24,000 bases of DNA from Pseudolactococcus piscium (GCF_002441695.1 NZ_JXJW01000002.1:64060-88059), one strand, 5' to 3'. Positions 3,556-17,749 are shown, numbered from the stretch's first letter. Notes: a model not told the origin generated them from the letters alone. Numbers and translations: made by a program.

Positions 3556-5904
3556 ATGTTAAAAAAAGAGTGGCAAGCAATACGTAAAAATAAATTTTTT
3601 ATTGTCATTATCATCGCGTTGATGACAATTCCAGCCCTATATAATCTGATATTCCTCAGTTCGATGTGGGATCCATACGGTAAAATATCTGATTTACCTG
3701 TTGCTGTGGTTAACCAAGACCAGTCAGCAGAAATTAACGGCAAGTCGGTCAATCTCGGAAAAGACCTAGCAGATGAGATGGCTAAGGGAAATGATCTAGA
3801 TTATCATTTTGTCAGTGATAGTACGGCACAAAAAGGATTGAAAGATGAGACCTATTTTATGGAGATCAAGATTCCAAGCGATTTCTCAAAAAATGCAGGT
3901 AGTCTGGTCAGTGATAAGCCAACATCGTCTACGATTCATTATCAAACCTCTAAAGGACATAACTTTATCGCCAGTAAGATGAGTGATTCGGCGATGGAGA
4001 AACTTAAAGAGAAGGTCTCTAAAAATATTACAGAAACCTATACAAAAACGATTTTTGAAAATCTGACGACCTTAGCTAGTGGCGTGACCAAAGCAGCAGA
4101 CGGTAGTAATCAATTAGTCGACGGTAGTCAAACTTTAAAATCAGGTTCTAGTGAAATTTCTAGCAACTTAGATAAATTAGCGACATCTAGCCTGACCTTT
4201 AAAGATGGTGCAGATACCCTAAATGTCGGCCTTGGCCAGTATATGGCTGGTGTATCGACTGTAAAAGATGGCTCAGCCGATTTATCACAAGCCGTAATGA
4301 AATATACTGATGGTGCAGCACAAATTGCTAATGGTACAAACCAACTCGCAACAGGAACAGCTAGTCTAGCAGCTGGTGTCTCTCAATTATCAAATAGTAA
4401 TGATAACGTACAAAAATTACTTGATGGTAGTGCAGCCCTTAGTGAGGGGATAGGAGATATATCAGCTGGCATTTCTATACCAAATCTGTCAGGCTTGAAA
4501 ACAGGAATAGCTAGTCTACAAAATGAAATTAATAGTGTTGAACTGGCTAAAATACCAGCAAGTTTGACTACGGATCTAGCTTATTTGAATACAGCGATTG
4601 ATACTTTAAAAACTGATCAAGAAAAAAATCTTGCAACACTTAAAGATACAGAAGCTTATAAATCACATCCGGAGGAACAAGCAACACTGGAGAGTTTAAT
4701 GAGCCCTTCCCCATCACTAGTTAAAAATATTAAGGATACAGCGACTGATATCCAAGCACAGATCACTTCATTGAGTACACATTTAGGGACTATTTCTGCT
4801 ATAAGTGCTAAAGCCTTACCAGGTGCAAATGTTGCTATTGATGGCTTAACAGGAATTAAAACAGGTGTTGATAGTAAACTTCAACCGGGTGCTATTCAGC
4901 TGAATGCTGGGCTTACTCAACTGCAAAGCGGTTTAGTTGATGGTGCCTCACAATTATCAGATGGCGCTAACAAACTCAACCAATCAACAGCGCAATTAAA
5001 CACGGGTGCGCAAACACTTGTTAGTAAAAATGCGGCGCTTAACGCAGGTAGTAGTAAACTTGCGACTGGTGCTGCGCAACTGACACAGAATTCACCTAAG
5101 TTATTAGATGGGTCAGCTCAGTTAGCAAGTGGTGCGGCACAAATTACAGATGGGTCAGGAAAACTTGCAAATGGTAGTAACACCTTAACAAGTGGGATCG
5201 GGACGCTAACAGCTGGTGCGACAACACTTAACACTGGCCTAACAGATGCTAAAACTAAACTTGCTGAAAATGCAACGGCTGAATTAAACGCTAAAAAAAT
5301 AGCAAGTCCGCTTAATATCACGCATCAAGACAAGGATAATTCACCAGAAAATGGTGTTGGTATGGCACCTTACATGATCTCTGTTGCCCTATTTGTTGGT
5401 GCTGTTGCAACCAATATGATCATTTCAGGCACTTTATCAGGAGAAAGTCCTAAGAGTCGTCGTGATTATCTACTTGCTAGAATCGGTGTGAATGGCTTGA
5501 TTGGTCTGGGAGAAGGCGTGCTAGTCTATCTAGCAGTTCATCTGCTTGGCTTGTCTGCCAATCATGAATTGGCTATGTTTGGCTTTACTGTATTAGTTGC
5601 GGTGTGCTTCATGTTCATCGTCACCTTCTTCAACACCTGGTTAGGCAAACCAGGCGCCTTCCTGATGCTGATTTTACTCCTGTTACAACTCGGCGCTAGT
5701 GCAGGGACTTACCCACTCGCCTTGACCAGCAATTTCTTCCAAAAATTAAATCCTTGGATGCCAATGACTTATGCTGTAAAAGGCTTTAGACAAGTGATTT
5801 CTTTGACAGGACAGATTGGTCAAGAAACTGGTATTTTACTTGCTATAACAGTCGTTTGCTTCATCTTACTATCGTTTGTCGGCTATAGAAAAGCAAAGGC
5901 TTAA
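3556..5904 (+). CDS. YhgE/Pip-family membrane protein (phage infection protein homologue)
   Basis: 782-aa ORF. Has one N-terminal TM helix, then a long Ala/Gly/Ser/Thr/Leu-rich ectodomain with degenerate repeats (e.g. DGSNQLVDGSQTLKSG, NGTNQLATGTASLAAG, DGANKLNQSTAQLNTG), then a C-terminal cluster of TM helices. This is the YhgE/Pip architecture. Confidence 0.85.
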   Translation: MLKKEWQAIRKNKFFIVIIIALMTIPALYNLIFLSSMWDPYGKISDLPVAVVNQDQSAEINGKSVNLGKDLADEMAKGNDLDYHFVSDSTAQKGLKDETYFMEIKIPSDFSKNAGSLVSDKPTSSTIHYQTSKGHNFIASKMSDSAMEKLKEKVSKNITETYTKTIFENLTTLASGVTKAADGSNQLVDGSQTLKSGSSEISSNLDKLATSSLTFKDGADTLNVGLGQYMAGVSTVKDGSADLSQAVMKYTDGAAQIANGTNQLATGTASLAAGVSQLSNSNDNVQKLLDGSAALSEGIGDISAGISIPNLSGLKTGIASLQNEINSVELAKIPASLTTDLAYLNTAIDTLKTDQEKNLATLKDTEAYKSHPEEQATLESLMSPSPSLVKNIKDTATDIQAQITSLSTHLGTISAISAKALPGANVAIDGLTGIKTGVDSKLQPGAIQLNAGLTQLQSGLVDGASQLSDGANKLNQSTAQLNTGAQTLVSKNAALNAGSSKLATGAAQLTQNSPKLLDGSAQLASGAAQITDGSGKLANGSNTLTSGIGTLTAGATTLNTGLTDAKTKLAENATAELNAKKIASPLNITHQDKDNSPENGVGMAPYMISVALFVGAVATNMIISGTLSGESPKSRRDYLLARIGVNGLIGLGEGVLVYLAVHLLGLSANHELAMFGFTVLVAVCFMFIVTFFNTWLGKPGAFLMLILLLLQLGASAGTYPLALTSNFFQKLNPWMPMTYAVKGFRQVISLTGQIGQETGILLAITVVCFILLSFVGYRKAKA

Positions 5905-7271: not shown

Positions 7272-8714
7272 ATGGATAAGTTTTTCAAACTTAAGGAAAA
7301 CGGTACAACAGTCAGTCGCGAGATTGTGGCTGGTTTAACAACATTTTTTGCAATGAGCTATATCTTGTTTGTCAACCCTGCGATTTTATCGCAAACAGGG
7401 ATGAACTATCAAGCAGTTTTTCTAGCAACAATCATCGCATCAATCATCGGTACGCTCATCATGGGACTTTTTGCTAATGTACCCTATGCACAAGCACCAG
7501 GTATGGGCTTAAATGCCTTCTTTACCTTCACAGTTGTCTTTGGCCTAGGTTATTCATGGCAACAGGCCCTTGCCATGGTCTTCATCTGTGGTATCATTAA
7601 TATCATTATTACGGTCACAAAAATACGTAAATTAATCATCAAATCAATTCCAGAAAGCTTGCAACATGCTATCGGTGGTGGTATCGGTGTCTTTATCGCC
7701 TATATCGGTATCAAATCAGCAGGCCTACTTCATTTTACAATCGATCCAGGGACTTATAAAGTCGTTGGTGAAGGTGCTGATAAAGGTAAGGCGACGATAG
7801 ATGCCAGTGCCGCAGCGATTCCTGCCTTAGTTAACTTTAACAGCCCAGCAGTCCTAATCGCTATTGTTGGTATTGTGTTGACAGCTGTATTAGTTGTTAA
7901 AAACTTCAAAGGTGCGATTTTAATCTCGATCATCACAACAACAATCTTAGCCATTATTTTTGGTGTAGTTGACCTTGGCTCAATCGACTTTAAGGCTAAC
8001 TCTTTAGGCTCTGCAATCGGTCATCTTGGTGATACCTTTGGTGCAGCCTTTGGTCACAAAGGGATGGGGACTTTATTCTCTGACTCTTCTAAAATTCCAC
8101 AGGTCTTGATGACGATTTTAGCCTTTTCATTATCAGATACCTTTGATACGATCGGTACTTTCATCGGAACAGGTCGTCGGACAGGCATTTTCTCTAAAGA
8201 AGATGAAAAATCTCTTGAAAATGGGTCAGGTTTCTCATCTAAGATGGATAAAGCCTTGTTTGCGGATGCAGTCGCAACTTCTATCGGTGCAATCTTTGGG
8301 ACATCAAATACAACAACTTATGTGGAGTCTGCAGCAGGTATCGGAGCTGGCGGTCGTACTGGTTTGACATCAGTCGTTACAGCGATTTGTTTCCTTTTCT
8401 CATCTTTCTTACTCCCATTTATCTCAGTTGTCCCTAGTGCAGCAACAGCGCCAGTTTTAATCGTCGTTGGTGTGATGATGCTAGGCTCATTTAAAGAAGT
8501 GAATTGGTCTGACCTAGAAGAAGCAATCCCTGCTTTCTTCGCCTCAATCTTCATGGGCTTTGCCTACAGTATTTCTTACGGTATCGCCGCAGGGTTTATC
8601 TTCTACACAATCATCAAAGTAGCTAAAGGTAAAGCAAAAGAAGTGAGTCCAGTTATCTGGGTCATCGATGTGTTATTCATTTTAAACTTTGTTATATTAG
8701 CAACCATTCAATAA
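7272..8714 (+). CDS. NCS2/AzgA-family purine (guanine/hypoxanthine/adenine) permease
   Basis: 480-aa polytopic membrane ORF. The N-terminus MDKFFKLKENGTTVSREIVAGLTTFFAMSYILFVNP is typical of PbuG/PbuO/AzgA-type permeases, and a PurBox lies upstream. The last 47 codons lie inside the island direct repeat. Confidence 0.85.
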   Translation: MDKFFKLKENGTTVSREIVAGLTTFFAMSYILFVNPAILSQTGMNYQAVFLATIIASIIGTLIMGLFANVPYAQAPGMGLNAFFTFTVVFGLGYSWQQALAMVFICGIINIIITVTKIRKLIIKSIPESLQHAIGGGIGVFIAYIGIKSAGLLHFTIDPGTYKVVGEGADKGKATIDASAAAIPALVNFNSPAVLIAIVGIVLTAVLVVKNFKGAILISIITTTILAIIFGVVDLGSIDFKANSLGSAIGHLGDTFGAAFGHKGMGTLFSDSSKIPQVLMTILAFSLSDTFDTIGTFIGTGRRTGIFSKEDEKSLENGSGFSSKMDKALFADAVATSIGAIFGTSNTTTYVESAAGIGAGGRTGLTSVVTAICFLFSSFLLPFISVVPSAATAPVLIVVGVMMLGSFKEVNWSDLEEAIPAFFASIFMGFAYSISYGIAAGFIFYTIIKVAKGKAKEVSPVIWVIDVLFILNFVILATIQ

Positions 8715-8730
8715 CAGATACTAAAAGCGC
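8574..8730. repeat. Left direct repeat (attL-like) of the integrative island
   Basis: 157 bp, identical to 16613-16769 except at 8696 (A vs C, a synonymous ATA/ATC Ile change) and 8721 (C vs T). It covers the last 141 nt of the permease ORF plus 16 nt downstream. Confidence 0.9.
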
Positions 8731-8812
8731 ATAAACTTACAGCGATACATGCGATACTTAAAAAAGCATATTTTTGTTTTGATTAAATTTAAAACAAAGG
8801 TGTGTTTTTTTC

Positions 8813-9727
8813 ATGGAAATAAATGAATATCTAAAAGAGTACTTACTAGAATGCAAAATAAGAAATTACAGCGCTCAAACAATCAAAGCAAAATCAATAA
8901 TTCTAAATGTGTTAATTAATTATTTATATAGTGAATTTGGAATCAATGATCTTGAAAAAATAAAAAAGGTACATATTCAATCTTACATTATTTTTGAAAT
9001 CGACAGGGGTAGAAAATCATCGACCGTTAACACTAAATTGAAAACATTAAAACCATTTTTTGATTATGCGCTTGACGAAGGTTATATAAAAGTAAATCCA
9101 TCTCGAAGTATTAAACTATTAAAAAATGAAAAAGCAGTTTTTACAGTCTTTAATGACAACGAGGTTTTGAAAATGATAGGCTATTGGAAAGGTGCATCAT
9201 ACACAGCAATTAAAAATAAACTTGTCATCTCAATGTTAGTTGATACAGGGATAAGGATAGGGGAGCTTACAAGCTTGTTGTTTGATGATGTTCAAGATAA
9301 TTGTATAAAGGTTCATGGTAAGGGCAACAAATGGCGTATAGTGCCTATATCACCCCAATTAAGAAAACTGATGCTGAAATATGAACGAAAAAGAAAAGAA
9401 ATCCTAGCAAAAAATAGCAAGGAGTCTGATTATTATTTCATTAATCAGTATAAGAATAAGATAGATGCAGTATCATCTTTTCAAAAAATGATAAAATACA
9501 CAGCAATTAAAGCAGGTGTTAGGGATAGTGTGAGGGCATCACCGCATACTTTTAGACATTATTATGTTATCAAAAGCCTAAGTCTAGGTACTCCTATTTA
9601 TCAAGTTTCAAAAAATATTGGGCATGAATCAATTAAGACAACTGAGATATACCTTAAACAGATAACAAATGAGCAAGTCGTTAATGAGCAAATTCAGAAA
9701 ACTATTTCACCATTATCTCACTTGTAA
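8813..9727 (+). CDS. Tyrosine recombinase / phage-type integrase (XerC/D-like size)
   Basis: 304-aa ORF with an N-terminal SAM-like domain. Catalytic-type residues are visible in DTGIRIGEL (Arg), HGKGNKWRIVPI (Lys), HTFRHYY (His-x-x-Arg) and GHESIKTTEIYL (His, Tyr). Confidence 0.85.
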   Translation: MEINEYLKEYLLECKIRNYSAQTIKAKSIILNVLINYLYSEFGINDLEKIKKVHIQSYIIFEIDRGRKSSTVNTKLKTLKPFFDYALDEGYIKVNPSRSIKLLKNEKAVFTVFNDNEVLKMIGYWKGASYTAIKNKLVISMLVDTGIRIGELTSLLFDDVQDNCIKVHGKGNKWRIVPISPQLRKLMLKYERKRKEILAKNSKESDYYFINQYKNKIDAVSSFQKMIKYTAIKAGVRDSVRASPHTFRHYYVIKSLSLGTPIYQVSKNIGHESIKTTEIYLKQITNEQVVNEQIQKTISPLSHL

Positions 9728-9787
9728 AATTCAAGTTTTATCAGGTATTTTGCAGTTTTAAATGTAGTAAATTACTAGGTTCAAAAA

Positions 9788-9796
9788 TGGTATAAT
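9788..9796 (+). promoter_or_regulatory. Extended -10 promoter (TGgTATAAT) of the KAP NTPase gene
   Basis: TGGTATAAT at 9788-9796. A GAGGTGA SD lies 6 nt before the ATG at 9831. Confidence 0.5.
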
Positions 9797-9830
9797 TATT
9801 TAAATAGACATAATTATATGAGGTGAAAAA

Positions 9831-11111
9831 ATGAAGAGACAAGATACAAACACAGCTGATGATGGTCAAATATCAGACCTATTTAAGAAAGATTTACTAA
9901 ACCGAAATGAAAACTTGTATGCACTCATTAATTTCATTAATGGTATTGAAGGGCAAATGATATTAAACATAGATGGTGCTTGGGGGACTGGGAAGTCAGT
10001 TTTTTTAAGGCAGTTAGAGTATATCTCTAGTACAAAAGAATATATTGATTATAGAGGAACTTCATATCAAAATATGGTAGATACTTTTAAGAAAGAATAT
10101 TTTTTATTTTATTTTAATTCATGGGAACATGATTTATACAACAATCCAATGGAATCACTGATTAGTGAATTATTGATGAAGATAGCATCTGAAAAGGACT
10201 ATGAAGATAAAATAAATGATGTTAAAGATGAGATAAATAATAAATTCAAGAAATTTACTGGTGATGGATTAAGAAGAGGAATAAAAATAATTTCGGGTGG
10301 TTTTATAGATTTAAATGATAAAAAAGTAGATGATACACTTGAAATAACTTCAGTAGGTTCTCAAAAAGAAGCAGTAAATAGTTTATTACAATTATTGTCA
10401 AGTATTACAGAAAAAAGAATACTAATTATAGTTGATGAACTAGATAGATGTAAGCCATCCTATGCAGTTGAATTATTAGAGGTTGTTAAGCACTTTTTCA
10501 CTCATGATGATGTCGTATTTTTATTTGGTACTAACAAGAATGAACTTGAGCATACTATTAAATCATTATACGGACAAGGATTTAATGGCTATAAATACTT
10601 AAATAGGTTTTTTGATTTTGAATTTTCATTACCAAATATTGATAAAGATAAATATATCGATAGAAAATATAGTGATGATTCCAATTTATTATTACATGAT
10701 TTTACTAAGTATTCTATTGACTATTTTAATCTTAGTATGCGTGATATTGAAAGATTATATGCGTTAATTAATGTTATAGGAACTAAAAAGAATTATCAGA
10801 ATAATCAAGATTATATCTTTATTGATTTTGTAATTGTAGTATATGCTATATGTCTTAAAATCGACAACGGAAATGGCTATAAAAAATTTATGGATGGACA
10901 AGGTAGAGATGATTTTTTACTATTTTGTGATGATTCTTTTCAAACAATTAATGAGATATATTATCGAAAAGAAAAAGATGAAATTATGGAAAAAATCAAC
11001 AATTTTTATAGTATGTTTCCTAACTTTTCTTATGATGGTCTTTATGGAAGAGATAGGGCATCTGAATATTTAAAAAACTCAATGAAATTACTTACGATGT
11101 TAAGTATATAA
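9831..11111 (+). CDS. KAP-family P-loop NTPase (soluble form, no TM insert)
   Basis: 426-aa ORF. Walker A GAWGTGKS (nt 9975-9998), the FNSWEHD motif, Walker B with the KAP signature IIVDELDRC (DELDRC = nt 10434-10451), and YLNRFFDFEFSLP (compare KAP YLEKIIQxPFxLP). No hydrophobic helices lie between Walker A and B. Confidence 0.8.
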   Translation: MKRQDTNTADDGQISDLFKKDLLNRNENLYALINFINGIEGQMILNIDGAWGTGKSVFLRQLEYISSTKEYIDYRGTSYQNMVDTFKKEYFLFYFNSWEHDLYNNPMESLISELLMKIASEKDYEDKINDVKDEINNKFKKFTGDGLRRGIKIISGGFIDLNDKKVDDTLEITSVGSQKEAVNSLLQLLSSITEKRILIIVDELDRCKPSYAVELLEVVKHFFTHDDVVFLFGTNKNELEHTIKSLYGQGFNGYKYLNRFFDFEFSLPNIDKDKYIDRKYSDDSNLLLHDFTKYSIDYFNLSMRDIERLYALINVIGTKKNYQNNQDYIFIDFVIVVYAICLKIDNGNGYKKFMDGQGRDDFLLFCDDSFQTINEIYYRKEKDEIMEKINNFYSMFPNFSYDGLYGRDRASEYLKNSMKLLTMLSI

Positions 11112-11131
11112 TATAGTTAAATAGCAAGAAG

Positions 11132-11166
11132 ACCAAATTATCGTAACTGATATTTTTGGTTTTTTT
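11132..11166 (+). terminator. Intrinsic terminator after the KAP NTPase gene
   Basis: ACCAAATTATC-gtaac-TGATATTTTTGGT is an imperfect hairpin, followed by a T-run at 11161-11166. Confidence 0.6.
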
Positions 11167-11360
11167 ATATTCAAATTCAACTATCAATCATACTATCTAT
11201 TAAACAGTTCAAATGCCTACCGCACACCTTACGGTGATTGGTGCTATAACGAGCTTTTCTATCGAAAACTCTATAGCGAATATATAATATCAAGTATTAT
11301 TTTGTGGGTTTTTGGATCTTGAATTATATCTTTATATCAGTTTAGTATATATTTATTCTT

Positions 11361-11383
11361 ATACCAAACCAATGTACACCTAT
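11361..11383 (+). repeat. Iteron-like 23-bp direct repeat, copy 1
   Basis: ATACCAAACCAATGTACACCTAT matches the copy at 11429-11451 at 19 of 23 positions. The last 12 nt (ATGTACACCTAT) are identical. Confidence 0.6.
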
Positions 11384-11428
11384 AATTTTATATATATATA
11401 CAAGTAAATTATACTTATAGTTATCTAT

Positions 11429-11451
11429 ATACAATACTGATGTACACCTAT
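11429..11451 (+). repeat. Iteron-like 23-bp direct repeat, copy 2
   Basis: ATACAATACTGATGTACACCTAT, starting 68 bp after copy 1. A degenerate third core (GCACACCTTA) lies at 11222-11231. Confidence 0.6.
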
Positions 11452-11648
11452 TTTCAATCACAACAATTAAAATTAATTTACAAAAAAGCTATTTTTGAGG
11501 GCCATTGGGCATGTCGCTCTGGGTTTATTATTAGGAGAATAAATATTTAAATTAATTTGTAAATTTACCCCCAAAAAATTGGCCATTTTGAAAACTTTTT
11601 GGCAATATAAGTAGATAGATATACAATTTAATTTAAAATAATTAACAC

Positions 11649-11687
11649 TATATATTGTGCCTTATAATTTCCAAACCACAATATATA
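11649..11687. promoter_or_regulatory. Operator-like 11-bp inverted repeat upstream of the small-ORF operon promoter
   Basis: TATATATTGTG (11649-11659) and CACAATATATA (11677-11687) are perfect reverse complements separated by 17 bp. The spacer contains a TATAAT (11663-11668). The right arm ends 10 bp before the -35 at 11698. Confidence 0.5.
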
Positions 11688-11697
11688 TTTGAGTGAG

Positions 11698-11725
11698 TTG
11701 ACAAATTATTATGAAATGGTATATT
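11698..11725 (+). promoter_or_regulatory. Near-consensus promoter of the small-ORF operon
   Basis: TTGACA (11698-11703), 16-nt spacer, then TGgTATATT (TG at 11717-11718, hexamer at 11720-11725). It predicts a 5' UTR of about 90 nt before the ATG at 11823. Confidence 0.65.
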
Positions 11726-11822
11726 AGATTAGGTATTAATTAAAAAGTTAATTATATTTAAAAAACACTCGACAATTTTTAAAAAATAAAAATAAAAATA
11801 AACAAATAAGGAAAAACGAAAT

Positions 11823-12098
11823 ATGCAAATTACATTAGAAGAATTATTTTATGATGATGAGTTTAAAGACATCATTAAAGAAAAATGGATAGTACAACTT
11901 CAGAAATTAGGTAAGTTACAGAGCAATACTAAAAATGGAATAATTACAGAATTGCTTAAGCAATATCAATCAGTTGAATATGTTAAAGGTAATAGAAGCA
12001 ACAAAGCACACTTTCAAATTGGTAGCAAGCGATCACAAGAAATAAGTCAAGCTGATATGATTGAAAAGGTTACTACAAAGCTAACGCTAATAACATAA
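11823..12098 (+). CDS. Hypothetical small protein (91 aa), first gene of the island operon
   Basis: ORF with an AAGGA SD (11808-11812) 10 nt before the ATG. No domain recognised. Confidence 0.5.
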   Translation: MQITLEELFYDDEFKDIIKEKWIVQLQKLGKLQSNTKNGIITELLKQYQSVEYVKGNRSNKAHFQIGSKRSQEISQADMIEKVTTKLTLIT

Positions 12099-12124
12099 AA
12101 ATTCATAACATCATTGCCTTGAAA

Positions 12125-12460
12125 ATGTTAAAAAAATATATTGTTGGTTTAGATGATGATGTGAAAGTCATGTCATTTACACGCTTAAATTGGCTTAAAG
12201 CAGCTGGGATCACTAGCAACATCAAAAACTTAAATGAAGTGGATGAAATGAAAAATATTGATTCAACTTTCAGAAGCTACTATAAAGATGATGTTGCATC
12301 AAGTTTGAAAAATGTGTTTAGTTTTTGCTTAAAGCAATTAAAAGTAAAAGAAGTTGATGCACCAGATTATTATTGCGATGCAGCTAATGATGATCAAGCA
12401 GATAGTGATGAAATGGTAATAAGAAAAGATTGCTGGATGACATCGAAGTTAAGAAAATGA
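12125..12460 (+). CDS. Hypothetical protein (111 aa from ATG 12125; the track starts at TTG 12119)
   Basis: ORF in operon orientation with an acidic C-terminal half (DAPDYYCDAANDDQADSDEM). No clear SD. Its stop overlaps the next ATG (ATGA at 12457-12460). Confidence 0.4.
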   Translation: MLKKYIVGLDDDVKVMSFTRLNWLKAAGITSNIKNLNEVDEMKNIDSTFRSYYKDDVASSLKNVFSFCLKQLKVKEVDAPDYYCDAANDDQADSDEMVIRKDCWMTSKLRK

Positions 12461-12681
12461 AAAGTTTTGTGGATGTTTTGAAGGCTAAACATAATGTTAC
12501 AAAATTCATGTTAGCGACAAGTGAATTCAAAAATGAGCTACGAGACAACTATAGAAATAATCTTAGATCTGAATCAATTTGGATTGAAATAGAATTAGAT
12601 ATTTCTAAACTAAAAAATGATATTAGTGATGCTGAATTAGCAAGTGATGAACTAAGATCACAATTCATGCTTGAGTTTTAG
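12457..12681 (+). CDS. Hypothetical small acidic protein (74 aa from ATG 12457; the track starts at TTG 12430)
   Basis: The ATGA overlap with the preceding ORF suggests translational coupling. Predicted helical and charged sequence. No domain recognised. Confidence 0.4.
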   Translation: MKSFVDVLKAKHNVTKFMLATSEFKNELRDNYRNNLRSESIWIEIELDISKLKNDISDAELASDELRSQFMLEF

Positions 12682-12744
12682 AAATATCGTAATAGCACCT
12701 ATATAAGACGAGAATTTAAAAGGAAAATTAAAGGCAAAAAAGAA

Positions 12745-13029
12745 ATGTTCTGGCGTTATGAAACAGGGTTACAAGAACAACCATCGAACTTTTCGCCTTA
12801 TTTACAGATGGAAAATAGAACCTATTTCAAGTTTATGACTGTGCTTGATCAACAAATCGGATTTGCTGAAGCTGATGTGACTGAGTATTCCAAAATGGAA
12901 AAAGAATATAAAGCAACAGTTGAAGACAATGAAGCGATTAAACTTGTAGATGATTGCAAGCAAAATAATATCATTTACTTGCATACACATACGAAAACAA
13001 ATAATGAATTAGACAAATTGTTTAAATAG
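12745..13029 (+). CDS. Hypothetical small acidic protein (94 aa)
   Basis: ORF in operon orientation with an AAAGG SD-like sequence about 10 nt upstream. No domain recognised. Confidence 0.45.
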   Translation: MFWRYETGLQEQPSNFSPYLQMENRTYFKFMTVLDQQIGFAEADVTEYSKMEKEYKATVEDNEAIKLVDDCKQNNIIYLHTHTKTNNELDKLFK

Positions 13030-13047
13030 AAAAAGGAATATAAGAAA

Positions 13048-13149
13048 ATGGAAATGATTACACTTAAACAACACATGACAAAAACAGCTGATAGCAAAGT
13101 TAAAGTTCTAAATGTTGATAAAGAAAAATTGGATAAAAAAGCAGCTTAA
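13048..13149 (+). CDS. Hypothetical micro-protein (33 aa, MEMITLKQHMTKTADSKVKVLNVDKEKLDKKAA); not in the ORF track
   Basis: AAGGA SD exactly 10 nt before the ATG, the same SD spacing as neighbouring ORFs. Read by eye from the sequence. Confidence 0.4.
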   Translation: MEMITLKQHMTKTADSKVKVLNVDKEKLDKKAA

Positions 13150-13203
13150 TTAATAGTTGATAAGTTGTTTAACTAATATAATAGAAAAAAGGATAATATA
13201 AAT

Positions 13204-13368
13204 ATGACTAAAACAGAAAAAGAACTACTAAACGAAGAATTTTTAAAGACTTTGAAAATGGGTCTACAAATTTCAAATATTCAAGCTGATTTGCTAGAAA
13301 GCAACATGAGTGAATTAGATAAGAAAATGACTAAACTAGACGATGATATGAACGAAGCAATAAAATAA
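13204..13368 (+). CDS. Hypothetical coiled-coil-like micro-protein (54 aa, MTKTEKELLNEEFLKTLKMGLQISNIQADLLESNMSELDKKMTKLDDDMNEAIK); not in the ORF track
   Basis: AAGGA SD 10 nt before the ATG. Lies opposite the implausible antisense track ORF 13281-13544. Confidence 0.45.
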   Translation: MTKTEKELLNEEFLKTLKMGLQISNIQADLLESNMSELDKKMTKLDDDMNEAIK

Positions 13369-13450
13369 ATAGTAACATATGTTGTAAATGTTTTTAAATG
13401 GGAGATTAAAAAATATAAGTGGGGTTCTTTAGTTGAAGGAAAACTAAAGA

Positions 13451-13561
13451 ATGAACAAGACAGAATTAGAAAAAGACACAGTACAAATAGCTGGAATGGT
13501 TGCAAAAGATGGAATAGAAGAACGAGTATATAGCGCTCAAACAAGTTGTGATGATATTTAA
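13451..13561 (+). CDS. Hypothetical micro-protein (36 aa, MNKTELEKDTVQIAGMVAKDGIEERVYSAQTSCDDI); not in the ORF track
   Basis: GAAGGA SD 10 nt before the ATG. Its 3' end overlaps the start of the next ORF (13548/13551). Confidence 0.4.
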   Translation: MNKTELEKDTVQIAGMVAKDGIEERVYSAQTSCDDI

Positions 13562-13742
13562 AGTTTTAGCTGACATGTATGACAGCATGCTAAGTTACTT
13601 ATTTAGCAAAGCGTTTAGTCATGTTGACAAAGGAATTGCATTGCAAAGTTTTAAAGAAAATCAAGTCAAACAGTTTGCTTATATGTTAGTAAATGTATTA
13701 TACGATGAAAAAGAATTGTTGGAAATGAAGTTGGTGGCATAA
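13548..13742 (+). CDS. Hypothetical small protein (64 aa; GTG 13548 or ATG 13551), last gene of the operon
   Basis: The ORF overlaps the preceding micro-ORF, suggesting coupling, and is followed immediately by a strong hairpin terminator. Confidence 0.4.
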   Translation: MMIFKVLADMYDSMLSYLFSKAFSHVDKGIALQSFKENQVKQFAYMLVNVLYDEKELLEMKLVA

Positions 13743-13743
13743 T

Positions 13744-13779
13744 AAAACTCTTTACCCTAAAAAAATGGTAAGGAGTTTT
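13744..13779. terminator. Bidirectional intrinsic terminator between convergent island genes
   Basis: AAAACTCTTTACC-ctaaaaaaat-GGTAAGGAGTTTT: a 13-bp stem with one G-U pair and A/T-rich flanks on both sides. Confidence 0.75.
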
Positions 13780-13785
13780 ATTTAA

Positions 13786-14169
13786 TTAAAAAATTAGTTT
13801 GTAATCAGATATGGCAATAGTAATATCATAGTCATAGCGATAGTTATGAATACCTTTATAATTAGTTGTTTTTATAAGGATATGATTTATTATATCCTCT
13901 TTTGGTATTTTAAAAATTTCACGAAATACATCAAAACCACTATATAAAATTCTGCCTTTTTCATCATTTTTTTTAAAAAGTGCGTTTAAATTAGAATTTA
14001 TTTTGTTTTCTTCTAAGAGGAATCTAAAAGTATTTTTTTCTATTTCTTTAAACAGAATTAAATTTTCTTTATTATCTAGTTCATTGTATTCTTTTAGGGT
14101 AACAAGATTAGATTTTTTTAGCAATGTGGTTAATTCGGTAATAGCAACATTATAGTCATTATCAGTCAT
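13786..14169 (-). CDS. Hypothetical protein (127 aa), island orphan
   Basis: Minus-strand ORF bounded by the terminator at 13744-13779 and its own extended -10 promoter at 14201-14209. The SD is weak. No domain recognised. Confidence 0.45.
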   Translation of the reverse strand: MTDNDYNVAITELTTLLKKSNLVTLKEYNELDNKENLILFKEIEKNTFRFLLEENKINSNLNALFKKNDEKGRILYSGFDVFREIFKIPKEDIINHILIKTTNYKGIHNYRYDYDITIAISDYKLIF

Positions 14170-14200
14170 TGTTATTCTTCTATCTATTTTATTTAAGTAT

Positions 14201-14209
14201 ATTATAGCA
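14201..14209 (-). promoter_or_regulatory. Extended -10 promoter (minus strand TGcTATAAT) for ORF 13786-14169
   Basis: Plus-strand ATTATAGCA at 14201-14209 is TGCTATAAT on the minus strand, about 32 nt upstream of the start codon. Confidence 0.5.
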
Positions 14210-14257
14210 TATAATTAAGATCAAACAGACTGATTATATGTTATTACTAAAGGTTAA

Positions 14258-14286
14258 TTGCTTTAGCTTTTTTATTGTATTATAAT
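14258..14286 (+). promoter_or_regulatory. Sigma-A-type promoter for ORF 14309-14641
   Basis: TTGCTT (14258-14263), 17-nt spacer, TATAAT (14281-14286). Sits back-to-back with the minus-strand promoter. Confidence 0.55.
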
Positions 14287-14308
14287 TAAATTAGAAAGCG
14301 GTGATGCA

Positions 14309-14641
14309 ATGACAATAGAAAAATATAGAATTTTATATTATGAAGATATTATTAAAGAACTTGAAAATGATGAGTGCATGTTTTTTCTAGAAATTCAAAA
14401 CTGTGAAATAGTTAGACGAGTATATAAAAAGGTACATAAAGGATTTGGTGGAAAACATAAGGTAGTTTATTATAATTTTACTAAATCCATGATGAATTTT
14501 AATGATATTAATGTATATTTTCAAAGTGAAGATTGTGAACAAGAGCTAATAAATTGTAAAGAAACAGATAAAATAAATAAAGTTGATTGGATAAAGAATA
14601 ATACAAGATATATTGTATTTAAATATAAGATTAGTATTTAA
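14309..14641 (+). CDS. Hypothetical protein (110 aa), island orphan
   Basis: ORF with a GGTGA SD-like sequence 4 nt upstream and its own promoter. Lys/Asn/Tyr-rich. No domain recognised. Confidence 0.45.
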   Translation: MTIEKYRILYYEDIIKELENDECMFFLEIQNCEIVRRVYKKVHKGFGGKHKVVYYNFTKSMMNFNDINVYFQSEDCEQELINCKETDKINKVDWIKNNTRYIVFKYKISI

Positions 14642-14669
14642 TTTTGAAATATCTAAAAGAGAATAGAAC

Positions 14670-14851
14670 ATGGAAAGATACCTTTTAAAAGCTGATGAGA
14701 GTGATTCAGAGAGAGCAAGATATAATGGCAGTTTAGAAGAAAAGAACTTTCTTTTGAAGAGTATGTGTACAATTATTCGTACTTGATAGAGAAATTATAT
14801 GAAGACAATGAAAGTAAATTTAAAGACTCTGACATTATGTCAAGTTCTTAG
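14670..14851 (+). pseudogene. Small ORF with an apparent frameshift; its final codon and stop come from the IS terminal repeat
   Basis: Frame 1 reads MERYLLKADESDSERARYNGSLEEKNFLLKSMCTIIRT and stops at 14784-14786. A second frame with no start codon continues as RRKELSFEEYVYNYSYLIEKLYEDNESKFKDSDIMSSS. Its TCT-TAG (14846-14851) lies inside the IS left inverted repeat. Confidence 0.4.
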
Positions 14852-14878
14852 AGTAGAAATAGTATAAATTCTCTTAAA

Positions 14879-15739
14879 TTAAGCAGTCATCTTTTCAAAC
14901 TGATTAGGAGTTAAATATCCTAAACTTTGATGAATGCGTTTTGAATTGTAAAAAGCTTCAATATACCAAAAAATGCTTTGATAGGCTTCTTCAAAATTTC
15001 TGTACTTAAATTGGTAAGTCCATTCTCTCTTTAAATGTCCATGCCACGATTCAAGGGTAGCATTATGATAAGGATAGCCTTTTCTGCTAAATGAGTGAGC
15101 CATGCCATGATCCTCAACTAACGTTTGATATTCATTGCTTGTATATTGACTTCCCTGATCAGAATGCAAGATAATTGAGCTCGTCTCTCCTTGAGACACA
15201 ATAGCTTTCTTCAAGGTACGTTGGAATAACTTAACAGTCATATGTTTATCTAAATCCCAAGCAATAATTTGTTTAGTATAGCGGTCCATAATGGTTGAGA
15301 GGTAGCACCAGCCTTTGCTAGTTGAGATATAAGTAATGTCAGTTGACCAGACCTTGTTCTTCGCTATAGGTTCAGTTAACACCATATTTTGACGGTCAAT
15401 GGTGTTAACTGAAGTGTGTGCTGGTTTGAAGTTTTTAGTGACGAGGGACTTCAAAGAGAGCTCCTTCATCAATTTTTGAACAAGTTTTATGCCAATTTTT
15501 TCTCCCTGCTTAAGTAACAGTTGATGAACTTTAGGTGCACCATAGATAGCTCGATTCTATTTGAATAGCTGACCAATCTTCAAGGATAACTCTTGACGTC
15601 TTAATTGGGTTTTGGACGGGAGATGATTGATTCGTTTATAATAACTTGACTCTGGAACACCAAGTAATTGACAACTTAATCTGATATTGAGTGCTAAAAT
15701 TTGTATTGTTTGCGTCATATCCACAGCACTCAATTCATT
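14879..15739 (-). pseudogene. IS3-family transposase OrfB (DDE/rve domain) interrupted by one in-frame TAG
   Basis: The frame is open from about 15739 and is -1 relative to orfA, overlapping it at GAGAAAATGA. The only interruption is an in-frame TAG (minus strand, 15559-15557) in QLFK*NRAIYGAPK. DDE residues are visible in WSTDITY, HSDQGSQY and NATLESWHGHLK. Confidence 0.8.
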
Positions 15740-15990
15740 TTCTCTGCGAATATGGTCAATACTTTTTTTAAGATATCTCGTTCCTCTTTAACCTGTGTTA
15801 GCTGTCTTTTTAGTTCAAGATAGTCAGATTTTGATATTGAGTTGTCATTAGGCTTTGAATAGAGGTCAATCCATTTATAGATGGTTGCAGGAGATATACC
15901 ATATTCTTTAGCTAGATGAGCTACCGATTGACCTGTTTGATATAAGTCAACAATTGTTTCTTTAAAATCTTTTGAGTATCGTTTTTGCAT
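15730..15990 (-). CDS. IS3-family transposase OrfA (HTH DNA-binding, leucine-zipper-like C-terminus)
   Basis: 86-aa ORF, MQKRYSKDFKETIVDLYQTGQSVAHLAKEYGISPATIYKWIDLY... Typical IS3 OrfA. It resembles lactococcal and streptococcal IS3 members from memory (unverified). Confidence 0.85.
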   Translation of the reverse strand: MQKRYSKDFKETIVDLYQTGQSVAHLAKEYGISPATIYKWIDLYSKPNDNSISKSDYLELKRQLTQVKEERDILKKVLTIFAEKMN

Positions 15991-16139
15991 AGTTTCTTCC
16001 TTCTGTATAAATTATACAATATCGACTCTAAGATTTTAGGATAGCATCAATTGTACTTATAAATTTTTTAGAGAAAATACTTGAGAGGTTAAAAATATAT
16101 TTAGAAAATAAAAGAGTAAAAAAGGGTTTTAATAATATA

Positions 16140-16373
16140 ATGATGACTTTAACAGATTCTGAGAAAAGGATAGTTTACTTAATTTTTGATAATGATACGT
16201 ACAATTTCAATGTCTGGGGAGATGCATCCTTAACAAAATTAACTAAACTCGGTGTAATATATTCAAATAGATTAGGTGGATTGACTACAGGACTTTCTTA
16301 TGGCTTGCAGCCTATGACAAGACAGTATTTAATTGATAATTCTAGTTATTTGTCTGATATAAAGAGTAAATGA
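16140..16373 (+). CDS. Hypothetical small protein (77 aa), last island ORF
   Basis: ORF between the IS and the right end of the island. The SD is weak and distant. No domain recognised. Confidence 0.35.
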   Translation: MMTLTDSEKRIVYLIFDNDTYNFNVWGDASLTKLTKLGVIYSNRLGGLTTGLSYGLQPMTRQYLIDNSSYLSDIKSK

Positions 16374-16460
16374 AATTTAAGCTTACATTAAGCCATTATT
16401 TGTATACTGTACTTACCCCAAAATTAGTAACATACTTTTTTCATAATTACAAACTCCTTT

Positions 16461-16496
16461 AAAAAAACATCTTGATGTGAATTGAGATGTTTTTTT
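16461..16496. terminator. Bidirectional intrinsic terminator near the right end of the island
   Basis: AAAAAAACATCT-tgatgtgaattg-AGATGTTTTTTT: the stem ACATCT/AGATGT extended by A-U pairs. Confidence 0.6.
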
Positions 16497-16561
16497 GTTT
16501 CAAATTTAAGCAAACTTACGGCTTTCCAACACCTATTTTGATAGATTTTTGCTTTTATATA

Positions 16562-16581
16562 TGCTATAATAGCGGTATAAT
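16562..16581 (+). promoter_or_regulatory. Outward-facing tandem -10 elements at the island right end
   Basis: TGcTATAAT (16562-16570) and GGTATAAT (hexamer 16576-16581), 32-50 bp before the right direct repeat and pointing out of the island. Confidence 0.45.
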
Positions 16582-16612
16582 CAAAACAAAAATATAATTT
16601 TTTAAGTTCTAA

Positions 16613-16769
16613 TCTTACGGTATCGCCGCAGGGTTTATCTTCTACACAATCATCAAAGTAGCTAAAGGTAAAGCAAAAGAAGTGAGTCCAGTTATCTGGG
16701 TCATCGATGTGTTATTCATTTTAAACTTTGTTATCTTAGCAACCATTCAATAACAGATATTAAAAGCGC
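16613..16769. repeat. Right direct repeat (attR-like): an orphan copy of the permease 3' end
   Basis: 155 of 157 positions identical to 8574-8730. Encodes the same last 47 codons (SYGIAAGF...ILATIQ*) but is preceded by an in-frame TAA, so it is a non-functional gene fragment. Confidence 0.9.
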
Positions 16770-16809
16770 TATTTTGTTTAACTTAGGTTAAGTAAAGTCG
16801 CTTTTTTTT
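16762..16809 (+). terminator. Probable native terminator of the permease gene, displaced to the right of the island
   Basis: A long imperfect hairpin with outer stem AAAAGCG...CGCTTTT and inner stem TTAAC/GTTAA, followed by an 8-nt T-run (16802-16809). Confidence 0.5.
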
Positions 16810-16866
16810 ATTTTGTAGCAGTCATTAGCTGACTATCATACTGCTCCAGAAAAGGTGCTGAAAACG

Positions 16867-17122: not shown

Positions 17123-17749
17123 ATGTTTTTATTAAAGGGGTTTAAAAAAATGTTAACGCTAAAGGTTGCCTTAGGCTGGTTAATTTTAGTGGCGGTTGGC
17201 TTCCTTGTGTTCTCAGTGATTAATGCCGGTGCTTATAAGCAGAAAGAGAATAAGCAATCATATTCTCTAGTTAAATATATTAAGCAAGCCAATGAGACCG
17301 TCTTTTTAAATGTTGGTGTGCAATCGATCGAGACGAAAGCAAACAACACAACGATTCCTTGGACTAAAATCGGCATTCCACTTACTGAGAAAAAAGCAGT
17401 CATCATCCTGAATTTTGAGGCAAAGTTAGGGATCAAAAAAGCAGTTGACGTGGCTAAATTAAGTGAGAACAGCTACAAGATTACAGTACCAAAGTATGAC
17501 GTGATTGGTATCGCTTTAGATAAAACAGCGCCTTATCAGCTATATGATGCGAGTGGTGAGTTGTTGAGCTACTCTACTTCTGATATTGATACAGGGGAAC
17601 TGGTCACAAAAAAATTGTCTAATGCTAAGCAAAAAGACTATTTGAAGCAGTATAAGGATCAAATGAATAATGCGGCAAAGGCCTACTATCAAGCACTATT
17701 TAGCGCAATTGATAAAAATATTAGGTTAACATTTTCCTTTGCAGAGTAA
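17123..17749 (+). CDS. Membrane-anchored hypothetical protein (possibly DUF4230-like)
   Basis: 208-aa ORF (alternative start ATG 17150) with one N-terminal TM helix (LGWLILVAVGFLVFSVI) and a soluble domain. The family assignment is from memory of the general architecture only. Confidence 0.6.
   Translation: MFLLKGFKKMLTLKVALGWLILVAVGFLVFSVINAGAYKQKENKQSYSLVKYIKQANETVFLNVGVQSIETKANNTTIPWTKIGIPLTEKKAVIILNFEAKLGIKKAVDVAKLSENSYKITVPKYDVIGIALDKTAPYQLYDASGELLSYSTSDIDTGELVTKKLSNAKQKDYLKQYKDQMNNAAKAYYQALFSAIDKNIRLTFSFAE

Follow-up and report, generated by a model that had tools for sequence, protein, structure and literature searches.

An island enclosed between two copies of the 3′ end of a purine permease gene lies in a 24,000-nt stretch of the genome of Pseudolactococcus piscium (also called Lactococcus piscium, now Pseudolactococcus). 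This stretch is referred to here as the window, and all coordinates are positions in it. An earlier note, drawn up from the sequence alone, had described the island as an integrase-bearing element of the defence-islet or phage-satellite type. We consider it to be a decayed (cryptic) remnant of a temperate siphovirus prophage which keeps its integrase and a candidate defence gene, and we put the probability of this at about 85%. Features are collected in Table 1; protein families in the island were scanned with Pfam, PHROGs and PADLOC.

Layout of the island and its target gene

Alignment of the two repeats, attL and attR, gave identity at 155 of 157 nt, as the earlier note had stated, with about 7.9 kb of AT-rich DNA enclosed between them. 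Beyond both repeat edges identity ends abruptly. The copies differ at 8696 (A) versus 16735 (C) and at 8721 (C) versus 16760 (T). Codons 435-480 and the stop codon of the permease open reading frame (ORF) are supplied by the left repeat, the last 46 codons lying within attL; the first difference is ATA/ATC, both of which encode Ile, and the second is located 7 nt past the permease stop. The proposal that the left copy completes the ORF, with one of the differences being a synonymous Ile codon, was thus confirmed. The right copy also proved to be an orphan fragment followed by the native terminator, as had been suggested; the 5′ half of the terminator stem falls within the last 8 nt of the repeat, and the hairpin is found in all ten empty sites described below.

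The content of the island is likewise as first described. A tyrosine recombinase gene comes first, and a 1.2-kb insertion sequence (IS), which belongs to the IS3 family, occupies about 14830-16049. The GC content is 0.37-0.43 in the flanks (about 0.40) versus 0.23-0.31 between the repeats, the IS excepted (0.35-0.38), and no replication, capsid, relaxase or conjugation families were recognised in the island by Pfam, PHROGs or PADLOC. Relaxase, coupling protein and other transfer genes, the hallmarks of an integrative and conjugative element or a mobilisable element, gave no Pfam match in the island. Rfam at gathering thresholds and scans for tRNA and tmRNA detected no RNA genes in the whole window, which ruled out an RNA gene as the att site.

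Occupied and empty sites

When the exact permease protein was looked up, ten distinct places were found, each of which has, directly after the permease, the DUF4230 gene that is present at 17123-17749 in the window. Unoccupied sites, for which the earlier note had proposed a search, are therefore available in ten genomic contexts. One of them, L009, matches the site excised in silico with 100% identity along 1157 nt. Its right flank agrees with the window in all of 7388 nt, and its 2695 nt of left flank differ only at the two attL variants; the other empty-site strains are 4-12% divergent. An independently assembled contig, L011, contains the junction of attL with the integrase gene together with 6.4 kb of island sequence, all at 100% identity, which shows that the repeat did not arise by duplication during assembly. 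What distinguishes the near-identical genomes is a genuine insertion polymorphism. As they differ only by the island, it was gained or lost as a unit recently.

Intact relatives of the island

Comparison with prophages of related species revealed how the island is derived. In L148, a Lactococcus carnosus prophage from GCA_022828655.1 (JAAECS010000001.1), the integrase gene (int) is followed by a KAP gene (59% identical), a spacer, the early genes, and then by genes for an HNH protein, the small and large terminase subunits and the portal; the island is collinear with the left end of this prophage. In L013 and L020 from Pseudolactococcus laudensis, genes for HNH, small and large terminase, portal, protease and major head protein are found after the integrase. 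L020/L145 continue with adaptors, tail terminator, major tail protein and the start of the tape-measure gene. L146, also a P. laudensis prophage, has the L013/L020-type early module together with a different integrase and Skunavirus-like head-tail genes. Since relatives of the island carry head and tail genes, its kin are complete temperate siphoviruses and not satellites.

Three features of a cryptic prophage are thus combined at this locus. The att repeats lie at the site used by related prophages, and the unoccupied site is present in other strains. The gene order is collinear with that of intact prophages possessing packaging, head and tail genes (L148, L013, L020/L145, L146). Essential phage genes are broken or absent, as seen in a pseudogene, in deletions and in the lack of structural and lysis genes. 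The small size of the island stems from decay, not design. As judged by sequence comparison, it is a mosaic of at least two phage lineages and not a truncated copy of one known phage.

A 38-aa ORF and a DUF4230 gene are located directly after the integrase in a P. laudensis prophage (L146:6701-7449, L147:1311-2059). This DUF4230 gene is 59% identical to the gene at 17123-17749, and in L. piscium these two genes lie together beside the permease attB. The prophage pair may be host DNA taken up by an ancestral phage via imprecise excision.

Decay of the early region

The small ORFs between 11823 and 14641 have no credible Pfam, PHROG or PADLOC family. The first four of them, of 91, 113, 83 and 94 aa, match successive segments of a single 367-aa protein in L013, L020 and L146. 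The reading frame has been broken by two frameshifts, followed by one in-frame stop; one of the frameshifts is the loss of a single A in GATGAAAATGG. The family of this early protein has 87 members, nearly all of 367-408 aa, and intact copies are present at L013:2450-3553, L020:3975-5078 and L146:10001-11104. Of the genes behind the early promoter region, this one comes first. Neither Pfam nor PHROGs gave a match for the family, and a confident AlphaFold model (pLDDT 88, pTM 0.81) matched only uncharacterised siphovirus proteins and no solved structure. The protein could function in replication or regulation, and its fold could be new.

Further downstream two early genes have been lost in whole or in part. 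The 264/272-aa gene expected after o54 (272 aa in L148) is absent, and the sequence 13367-13489 joins L148 12592-12702. The product of o64 matches the C-terminal end of a 297-aa ORF in L020 and of a 303-aa gene in L148 (62%). The last patch of collinearity with L148 is 14243-14294, which matches the region just before the L148 HNH gene. Between the terminator following the KAP gene and the early promoter there are two 36-nt direct repeats (11348-11383 and 11416-11451), 78% identical and both ending in ATGTACACCTAT. They were found only here and in L011 and are not conserved in relatives, and no conclusion about iterons was drawn from them. No relatives of o127 and o110 were found in viral contigs.

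Beyond these genes lies the IS, assigned to the IS3 family by an OrfA with HTH_Tnp_1, an OrfB with the rve DDE domain and TG...CA terminal inverted repeats; its extent was set by comparison with L046 and L047. A Megablast search against plasmids, made to name the element, gave no match. Its orfB has an in-frame stop, while that of L047 is intact (284 aa), and the flanking triplets, CTC and ATT, do not form a target-site duplication, so that neither the intact transposase nor the 3-4 bp duplication of a functional copy was found. In an intact phage the packaging, head, tail and lysis genes would start at the place now taken by the IS. The missing duplication fits an IS-associated deletion, and the position of the element suggests that such a deletion could have removed these genes.

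The following course of events would account for the island. A temperate siphovirus from the phage pool of L. piscium, L. carnosus and P. laudensis would have integrated via its XerD-like integrase into the permease 3′ end. Its attP would have carried the last 46 permease codons and 16 nt, so that the gene was rebuilt at attL and an orphan copy was left at attR. During the subsequent decay the 367-aa early gene gained two frameshifts and a stop, and the two early genes were deleted in whole or in part. About 25-30 kb, from the HNH and terminase genes to near the right end, would also have disappeared (the size is estimated by comparison with relatives), with the IS marking the junction of this large deletion. 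The survivors are the integrase and the KAP cassette, the latter in a variable slot just after int.

Several points weigh against this interpretation. The integrase of L148 is only 31% identical and is found at another site. None of the relatives recovered combines two att sites with the whole set of phage genes, the full-length prophages being known only from their left parts (contigs or 10-kb flanks). An excisionase was not recognised in the island. The phage origin of the right 0.56 kb, o127 and o110 is assumed, relatives of them not having been found in the searches made. L011 and the window may share a strain or even reads, in which case the frameshifts have no independent confirmation; this leaves the in-frame stop and the deletions unaffected. 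Finally, the KAP gene is a candidate defence gene by association.

Table 1. Features of the island and of its insertion site.
Feature	Position	Strand	Remarks
NCS2-family purine/nucleobase permease gene, 480 aa	7272-8714	+	Pfam Xan_ur_permease 1e-43; integration target
attL, left 157-nt repeat copy	8574-8730	+	carries both variant bases (8696 A, 8721 C)
Left arm of 30-nt inverted repeat	8756-8785	.	25 nt inside attL
AT-rich hairpin, 23 bp, then U-run	8760-8811	+	-25.1 kcal/mol, z -4.4; stops 1 nt before int ATG
XerD-like tyrosine integrase, 304 aa, intact	8813-9727	+	Pfam Phage_integrase 3e-26 and SAM_1; PHROG integrase 2e-46
KAP-family P-loop NTPase, 426 aa, intact	9831-11111	+	Pfam KAP_NTPase 5e-34; candidate anti-phage moron cassette
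AT-rich spacer, 0.7 kb	11112-11822		holds the best promoter-like site in the island
Terminator-like hairpin and U-run after KAP gene	11126-11166	+	-13.2 kcal/mol, z -3.3
Best promoter-like site, TTGACA-16-TATATT with TG	11698-11725	+	11/12 match, consensus match only; upstream of early genes
Pseudogene of conserved 367-aa phage early protein	11823-13029	+	four ORFs (see text)
o54, small early gene, retained	13204-13368	+	76% identical to a 54-aa gene in the same position in L148
o64, C-terminal stub of ~300-aa early gene	13548-13742	+	rest of gene deleted
o127, orphan ORF	13786-14169	-	no Pfam/PHROG match; marginal PADLOC JetD, E 0.003
o110, orphan ORF	14309-14641	+	no credible family match
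IS3-family insertion sequence, ~1.22 kb, TG...CA ends	14830-16049	-	HTH_Tnp_1 and rve domains
Right-end DNA, 0.56 kb	16050-16612		one orphan ORF
o77, orphan ORF	16140-16373	+	no Pfam, PHROG or PADLOC family
Extended -10 element ATGCTATAAT pointing into attR	16561-16570	+	within promoter-like 16554-16581 of scan
Right arm of 30-nt inverted repeat	16578-16607	.	5 nt before attR
attR, right 157-nt repeat copy	16613-16769	+	orphan permease fragment 16613-16753 (46 codons and stop); identical to L009 empty site
Native permease terminator, hairpin and U-run	16762-16812	+	-14.2 kcal/mol, z -2.9; kept in 10/10 empty sites

Integrase

The integrase has the full catalytic set of a tyrosine recombinase (R148, K170/173, H245, R248, H271, Y280), with all these residues invariant across its clade, as well as a SAM-like N-terminal core-binding domain; at 304 aa it has no separate arm-binding domain. 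The ratio of nonsynonymous to synonymous substitution (dN/dS), calculated against the 90%-identical relative in L012, is 0.086, and that of the permease is 0.065. When L012:3612-6069 was compared with 7272-9727, dS of the integrase (0.73) was lower than that of the adjacent permease (1.33). This hints that the elements may be closer kin than their hosts, that is, at transfer between species.

An identical integrase is annotated in Lactococcus (now Pseudolactococcus) piscium. The clade consists of about 25 proteins of 36-100% identity and is set well apart from ordinary XerD, at about 30%. Homologous islands, for which the earlier note had recommended searching, do occupy the same site: integrases of the clade adjoin the same permease gene in other species (L012, L015), and the L013 and L020 contigs start with a permease 3′ fragment followed by the integrase. 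The small island in L015 is bounded by perfect 139-nt repeats of the permease 3′ end, 9,038 nt apart. At L015:6120-6296 its integrase aligns to the product of 8813-9727 in two frames near the N-terminus; judging from this alignment the gene may be damaged, and L015 may be another remnant. A search for a more intact copy of our island via the conserved arm beside int gave no exact match in viral contigs.

In Enterococcus the same integrase clade is located after the enolase gene. The enolase 3′ side is a second insertion hot spot (L017:8566-10936, L018, L019, L152:3543-5192). The clade is accompanied there by SLFN/AlbA_2 cargo in Enterococcus devriesei, and the enolase site of Vagococcus jeotgali holds an island with type I restriction-modification (R-M) and KAP genes.

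KAP NTPase and the slot after the integrase

In the PADLOC scan the KAP protein matched PDC-S20 (7e-62), PifA (5e-12) and QatA (3e-10). Both Walker A (aa 49-56) and Walker B (aa 197-203) are intact, in keeping with membership of the PDC-S20 family, and the protein is of full length, its homologues having 425-431 aa. The C-terminal part of about 150 aa contains no known domain. No mention of PDC-S20 was found in the literature. The KAP cassette with its upstream spacer (9722-10633) is 80% identical at the nucleotide level to L148, although the integrases of the two elements share only 31% identity, from which it follows that KAP moves as a cassette.

The slot after int holds different defence-type genes across the relatives. 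It is occupied by the KAP NTPase (PDC-S20) in this island, by AbiH in L020 (Pfam 1e-31), by SLFN/AlbA_2 (PDC-S50) in L017-L019 from Enterococcus, and, in L151, by a type I restriction operon in which a KAP gene separates hsdS from hsdR. KAP homologues of 42% identity are found between hsdS and hsdR of type I R-M operons in Enterococcus viikkiensis and V. jeotgali (hsdS-KAP-hsdR loci at L150:6801-12478, L151:1978-9198 and L152:5192-12432). In the Escherichia coli prr locus this position is that of PrrC. A defence role of the island KAP gene is well supported by these associations, as far as sequence can indicate it, and the cassette most likely protects the host against other phages via an NTPase-dependent mechanism. 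In experiments on a different KAP NTPase, EF_KAP of Enterococcus faecalis, the protein blocked phages in a Walker B-dependent, non-abortive manner (PMC13552941).

Crossover point and signals at the island ends

The two positions at which the repeats differ help to place the crossover. Position 8696 is C in all ten empty sites versus A in attL, while the second variant is polymorphic among the empty sites. Because attL consists of a bacterial left part and a phage right part, and both variants lie in the phage-derived part, the crossover must be to the left of 8696. The left edge of homology is at the same codon in L015, where the integrase is 52% identical. Together with the identity of attR to the empty site, these observations point to a crossover near the left repeat edge. 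In the usual att arrangement identity spans from the crossover to the gene end, and the left edge of the island fits this.

Between the two repeats, close to each of them, lie the parts of a 30-nt inverted repeat whose arms, 8756-8785 and 16578-16607, are 93% complementary; an equivalent inner inverted repeat, a 20-nt pair at 90%, is present in L015. The left arm forms part of the hairpin that precedes int, in which the int ribosome-binding site (RBS) is buried, with a predicted P(unpaired) of 0.08. This hairpin is kept in five relatives, and six of its pairs show compensatory changes. It is probably a replacement terminator for the permease supplied by the phage, predicted to keep int silent in the lysogen.

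At the other end the distance from the start of ATGCTATAAT to the right repeat copy downstream is exactly 52 nt, both here and in L015. If the island were circular, this promoter-like element would read across attP toward int. In the predicted transcript of the circular form the RBS has a P(unpaired) of 0.43, up from 0.08, compared with a maximum of 0.19 in a shuffled-prefix control. The same prediction for L015 is marginal (0.13 to 0.23), and its minimum-energy fold retains the hairpin. The motif ACTTACRGC was considered as an integrase-binding site near both att ends and rejected, since its 12 matches, versus 7 +/- 2.7 expected, are not above chance.

Neighbouring variable loci

Some empty-site strains have extra small gene sets with no Pfam match in this neighbourhood (L007:11844-13960, L008:11078-13194, L010:7052-8571), and the EamA-queA and DUF218-purF gaps in which they are found are further variable loci. 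Upstream of the permease, the window has an intact gene (3556-5904) for a 782-aa ABC-2 membrane protein. Its counterpart at L001:6317-8677 is divided between two ORFs, and at L003:6173-8864 it has no gene call; in these two strains it may be a pseudogene.

Mobility of the island and alternative explanations

The extent of decay implies age; yet L009, with identical flanks, has no island. Either the L009 lineage lost the island precisely or the lineage represented by the window gained it as a unit, and the bases at the empty site are compatible with both. In the case of loss, either Int could have excised the island or the two 157-nt repeats could have undergone homologous recombination. The near-isogenic empty site gives indirect support to the view that the integrase may act at the island att sites, and for continued Int-mediated mobility we would give roughly even odds on the sequence data. 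An exact-match search for the circular attP junction in metagenome and viral contigs found nothing, a result that is uninformative for a poorly sampled species and an exact-match pattern.

The remnant might also be a mobile unit reduced to its att sites, the integrase and a single defence gene, which is still excising and re-integrating, is selected for defence, and has int wired to topology via an RNA switch. The right-end promoter would read across attP only in the circular form, and in that transcript the right inverted-repeat arm would pair with the left arm and free the int RBS. We regard this extended version as unlikely. Were it true, the island would be an intermediate between prophage and defence islet with an RNA-level sensor of the integrated versus the excised state.

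The earlier note had likened the island to a defence islet or a satellite-type element. What stands of this is an integrase-bearing element that regenerates its target and carries a gene of defence type, as the PDC-S20 match indicates; what does not stand is a distinct compact class, since the genes are collinear with the left end of full-size siphovirus prophages, the longest of the early genes has become a pseudogene and two others have been deleted. If the island were a self-standing integrative defence islet, it would serve as a minimal int-att vehicle for defence cargo, moved passively by transduction or transformation and then inserted by Int, with shared modules as its only link to phages. 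Small islands of the same clade without recognisable phage structural genes do exist (L015 of 9.0 kb, L017-L019 with SLFN/AlbA_2, L151 with type I R-M and KAP), int and KAP are intact here while all else is broken, and the element differs in presence between near-identical genomes. However, defunct phage DNA and a defunct IS make up over half of the island, which would not be the case in a streamlined vehicle, the layout of the island is explained by collinearity with intact prophages, and L015, the integrase of which appears frameshifted near the N-terminus, may itself be a remnant. Such an islet is thus an improbable explanation.

An active phage satellite, of the type of phage-inducible chromosomal islands (PICIs) or capsid-forming PICIs (cf-PICIs), would hijack helper-phage particles while keeping its own integration, regulation and replication genes. 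The small size of the island and the position of int at one end, beside a site-specific att in a gene 3′ end, are reminiscent of these elements, and many integrase relatives in IMG/VR are on 12-17 kb 'viral' contigs with int at the end, which may however be truncated prophage calls. L013 at first resembled an int gene with a short early region and a head module; the cf-PICI idea that arose from it was rejected on finding major tail and tape-measure genes in L020/L145 and L146, which mark the closest relatives as complete siphoviruses. The island itself lacks a primase or replicase, a repressor, a small terminase and any capsid-related gene by Pfam, PHROGs and PADLOC. No intact replication module with an origin was recognised by Pfam or PHROGs, the main and largest early gene is broken and two further early genes are deleted, and packaging-redirecting or capsid genes were likewise not found by Pfam and PHROGs. 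We therefore regard an active satellite as very improbable.

An assembly artefact, or core DNA deleted by other strains, is hardly credible even though the exact integrase is present in only two contigs of the collection: the L011 contig reproduces the junction, GC content breaks at the island, the repeat is a gene 3′ end with an integrase directly adjoining, and homologous elements with other cargo occupy the same site in other species.

Overall, the data favour a cryptic siphovirus prophage. The locus should accordingly be annotated as a defective prophage with a candidate defence gene and not as a new element class. Here decay has left precisely the integrase and a defence moron untouched, which illustrates one route to small int-adjacent "defence islets". 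The understudied siphoviruses of L. piscium, L. carnosus and P. laudensis have XerD-like integrases, long att sites in gene ends and a defence hot spot after int, and their early module consists of proteins without known family, including the confidently modelled 367-aa protein. The host species matter for meat and fish spoilage and for dairy cultures, and the KAP cassette is a candidate determinant of phage resistance.

Comparison with known systems

The kind of element is well known; the phage family, target gene and cargo slot are, as far as we found, undescribed in the literature. A close parallel is e14 of E. coli K-12, a cryptic prophage remnant with a tyrosine integrase in the icd 3′ end. 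A substitute copy of the last ~50 icd codons keeps the gene functional, and e14 retains int together with Lit and McrA, with most phage functions absent. The island described here is also a remnant in a gene 3′ end in which the gene is restored and int and a candidate anti-phage gene are kept. It differs in host, in target (purine permease), in integrase clade (XerD-like, 304 aa), in its KAP cargo and in size (7.9 kb versus ~15 kb), and it has an IS at its deletion junction.

Lactococcal P335-type temperate phages carry resistance genes beside int, such as Sie2009 of Tuc2009. The variable int-adjacent slot is shared with the relatives of the island, where it is filled by KAP, AbiH or SLFN/AlbA_2. 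In the island family, however, int and the early genes share one direction of transcription, a repressor pair of the cI/Cro type was not recognised, and the early proteins have no known family; the cargo of the island is a cytoplasmic NTPase and not a membrane Sie protein.

The island protein resembles PDC-S20, PifA and EF_KAP in having a KAP_NTPase domain with Walker A and B and in being encoded by a single-gene cassette on a mobile element. Its C-terminal ~150 aa are reminiscent of the domain-plus-unknown-effector layout described for EF_KAP (PMC13552941). It is shorter than PifA (profile length 720) and EF_KAP (322-aa region after KAP), and it differs further in having one weakly hydrophobic segment (aa 327-345) and no clear N-terminal and intra-domain transmembrane helices. 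With PICIs and cf-PICIs the island shares its size range, int at one end and site-specific insertion; it differs from them in having no intact replication, regulation or packaging module, in its pseudogenes, and in having complete phages as its kin.

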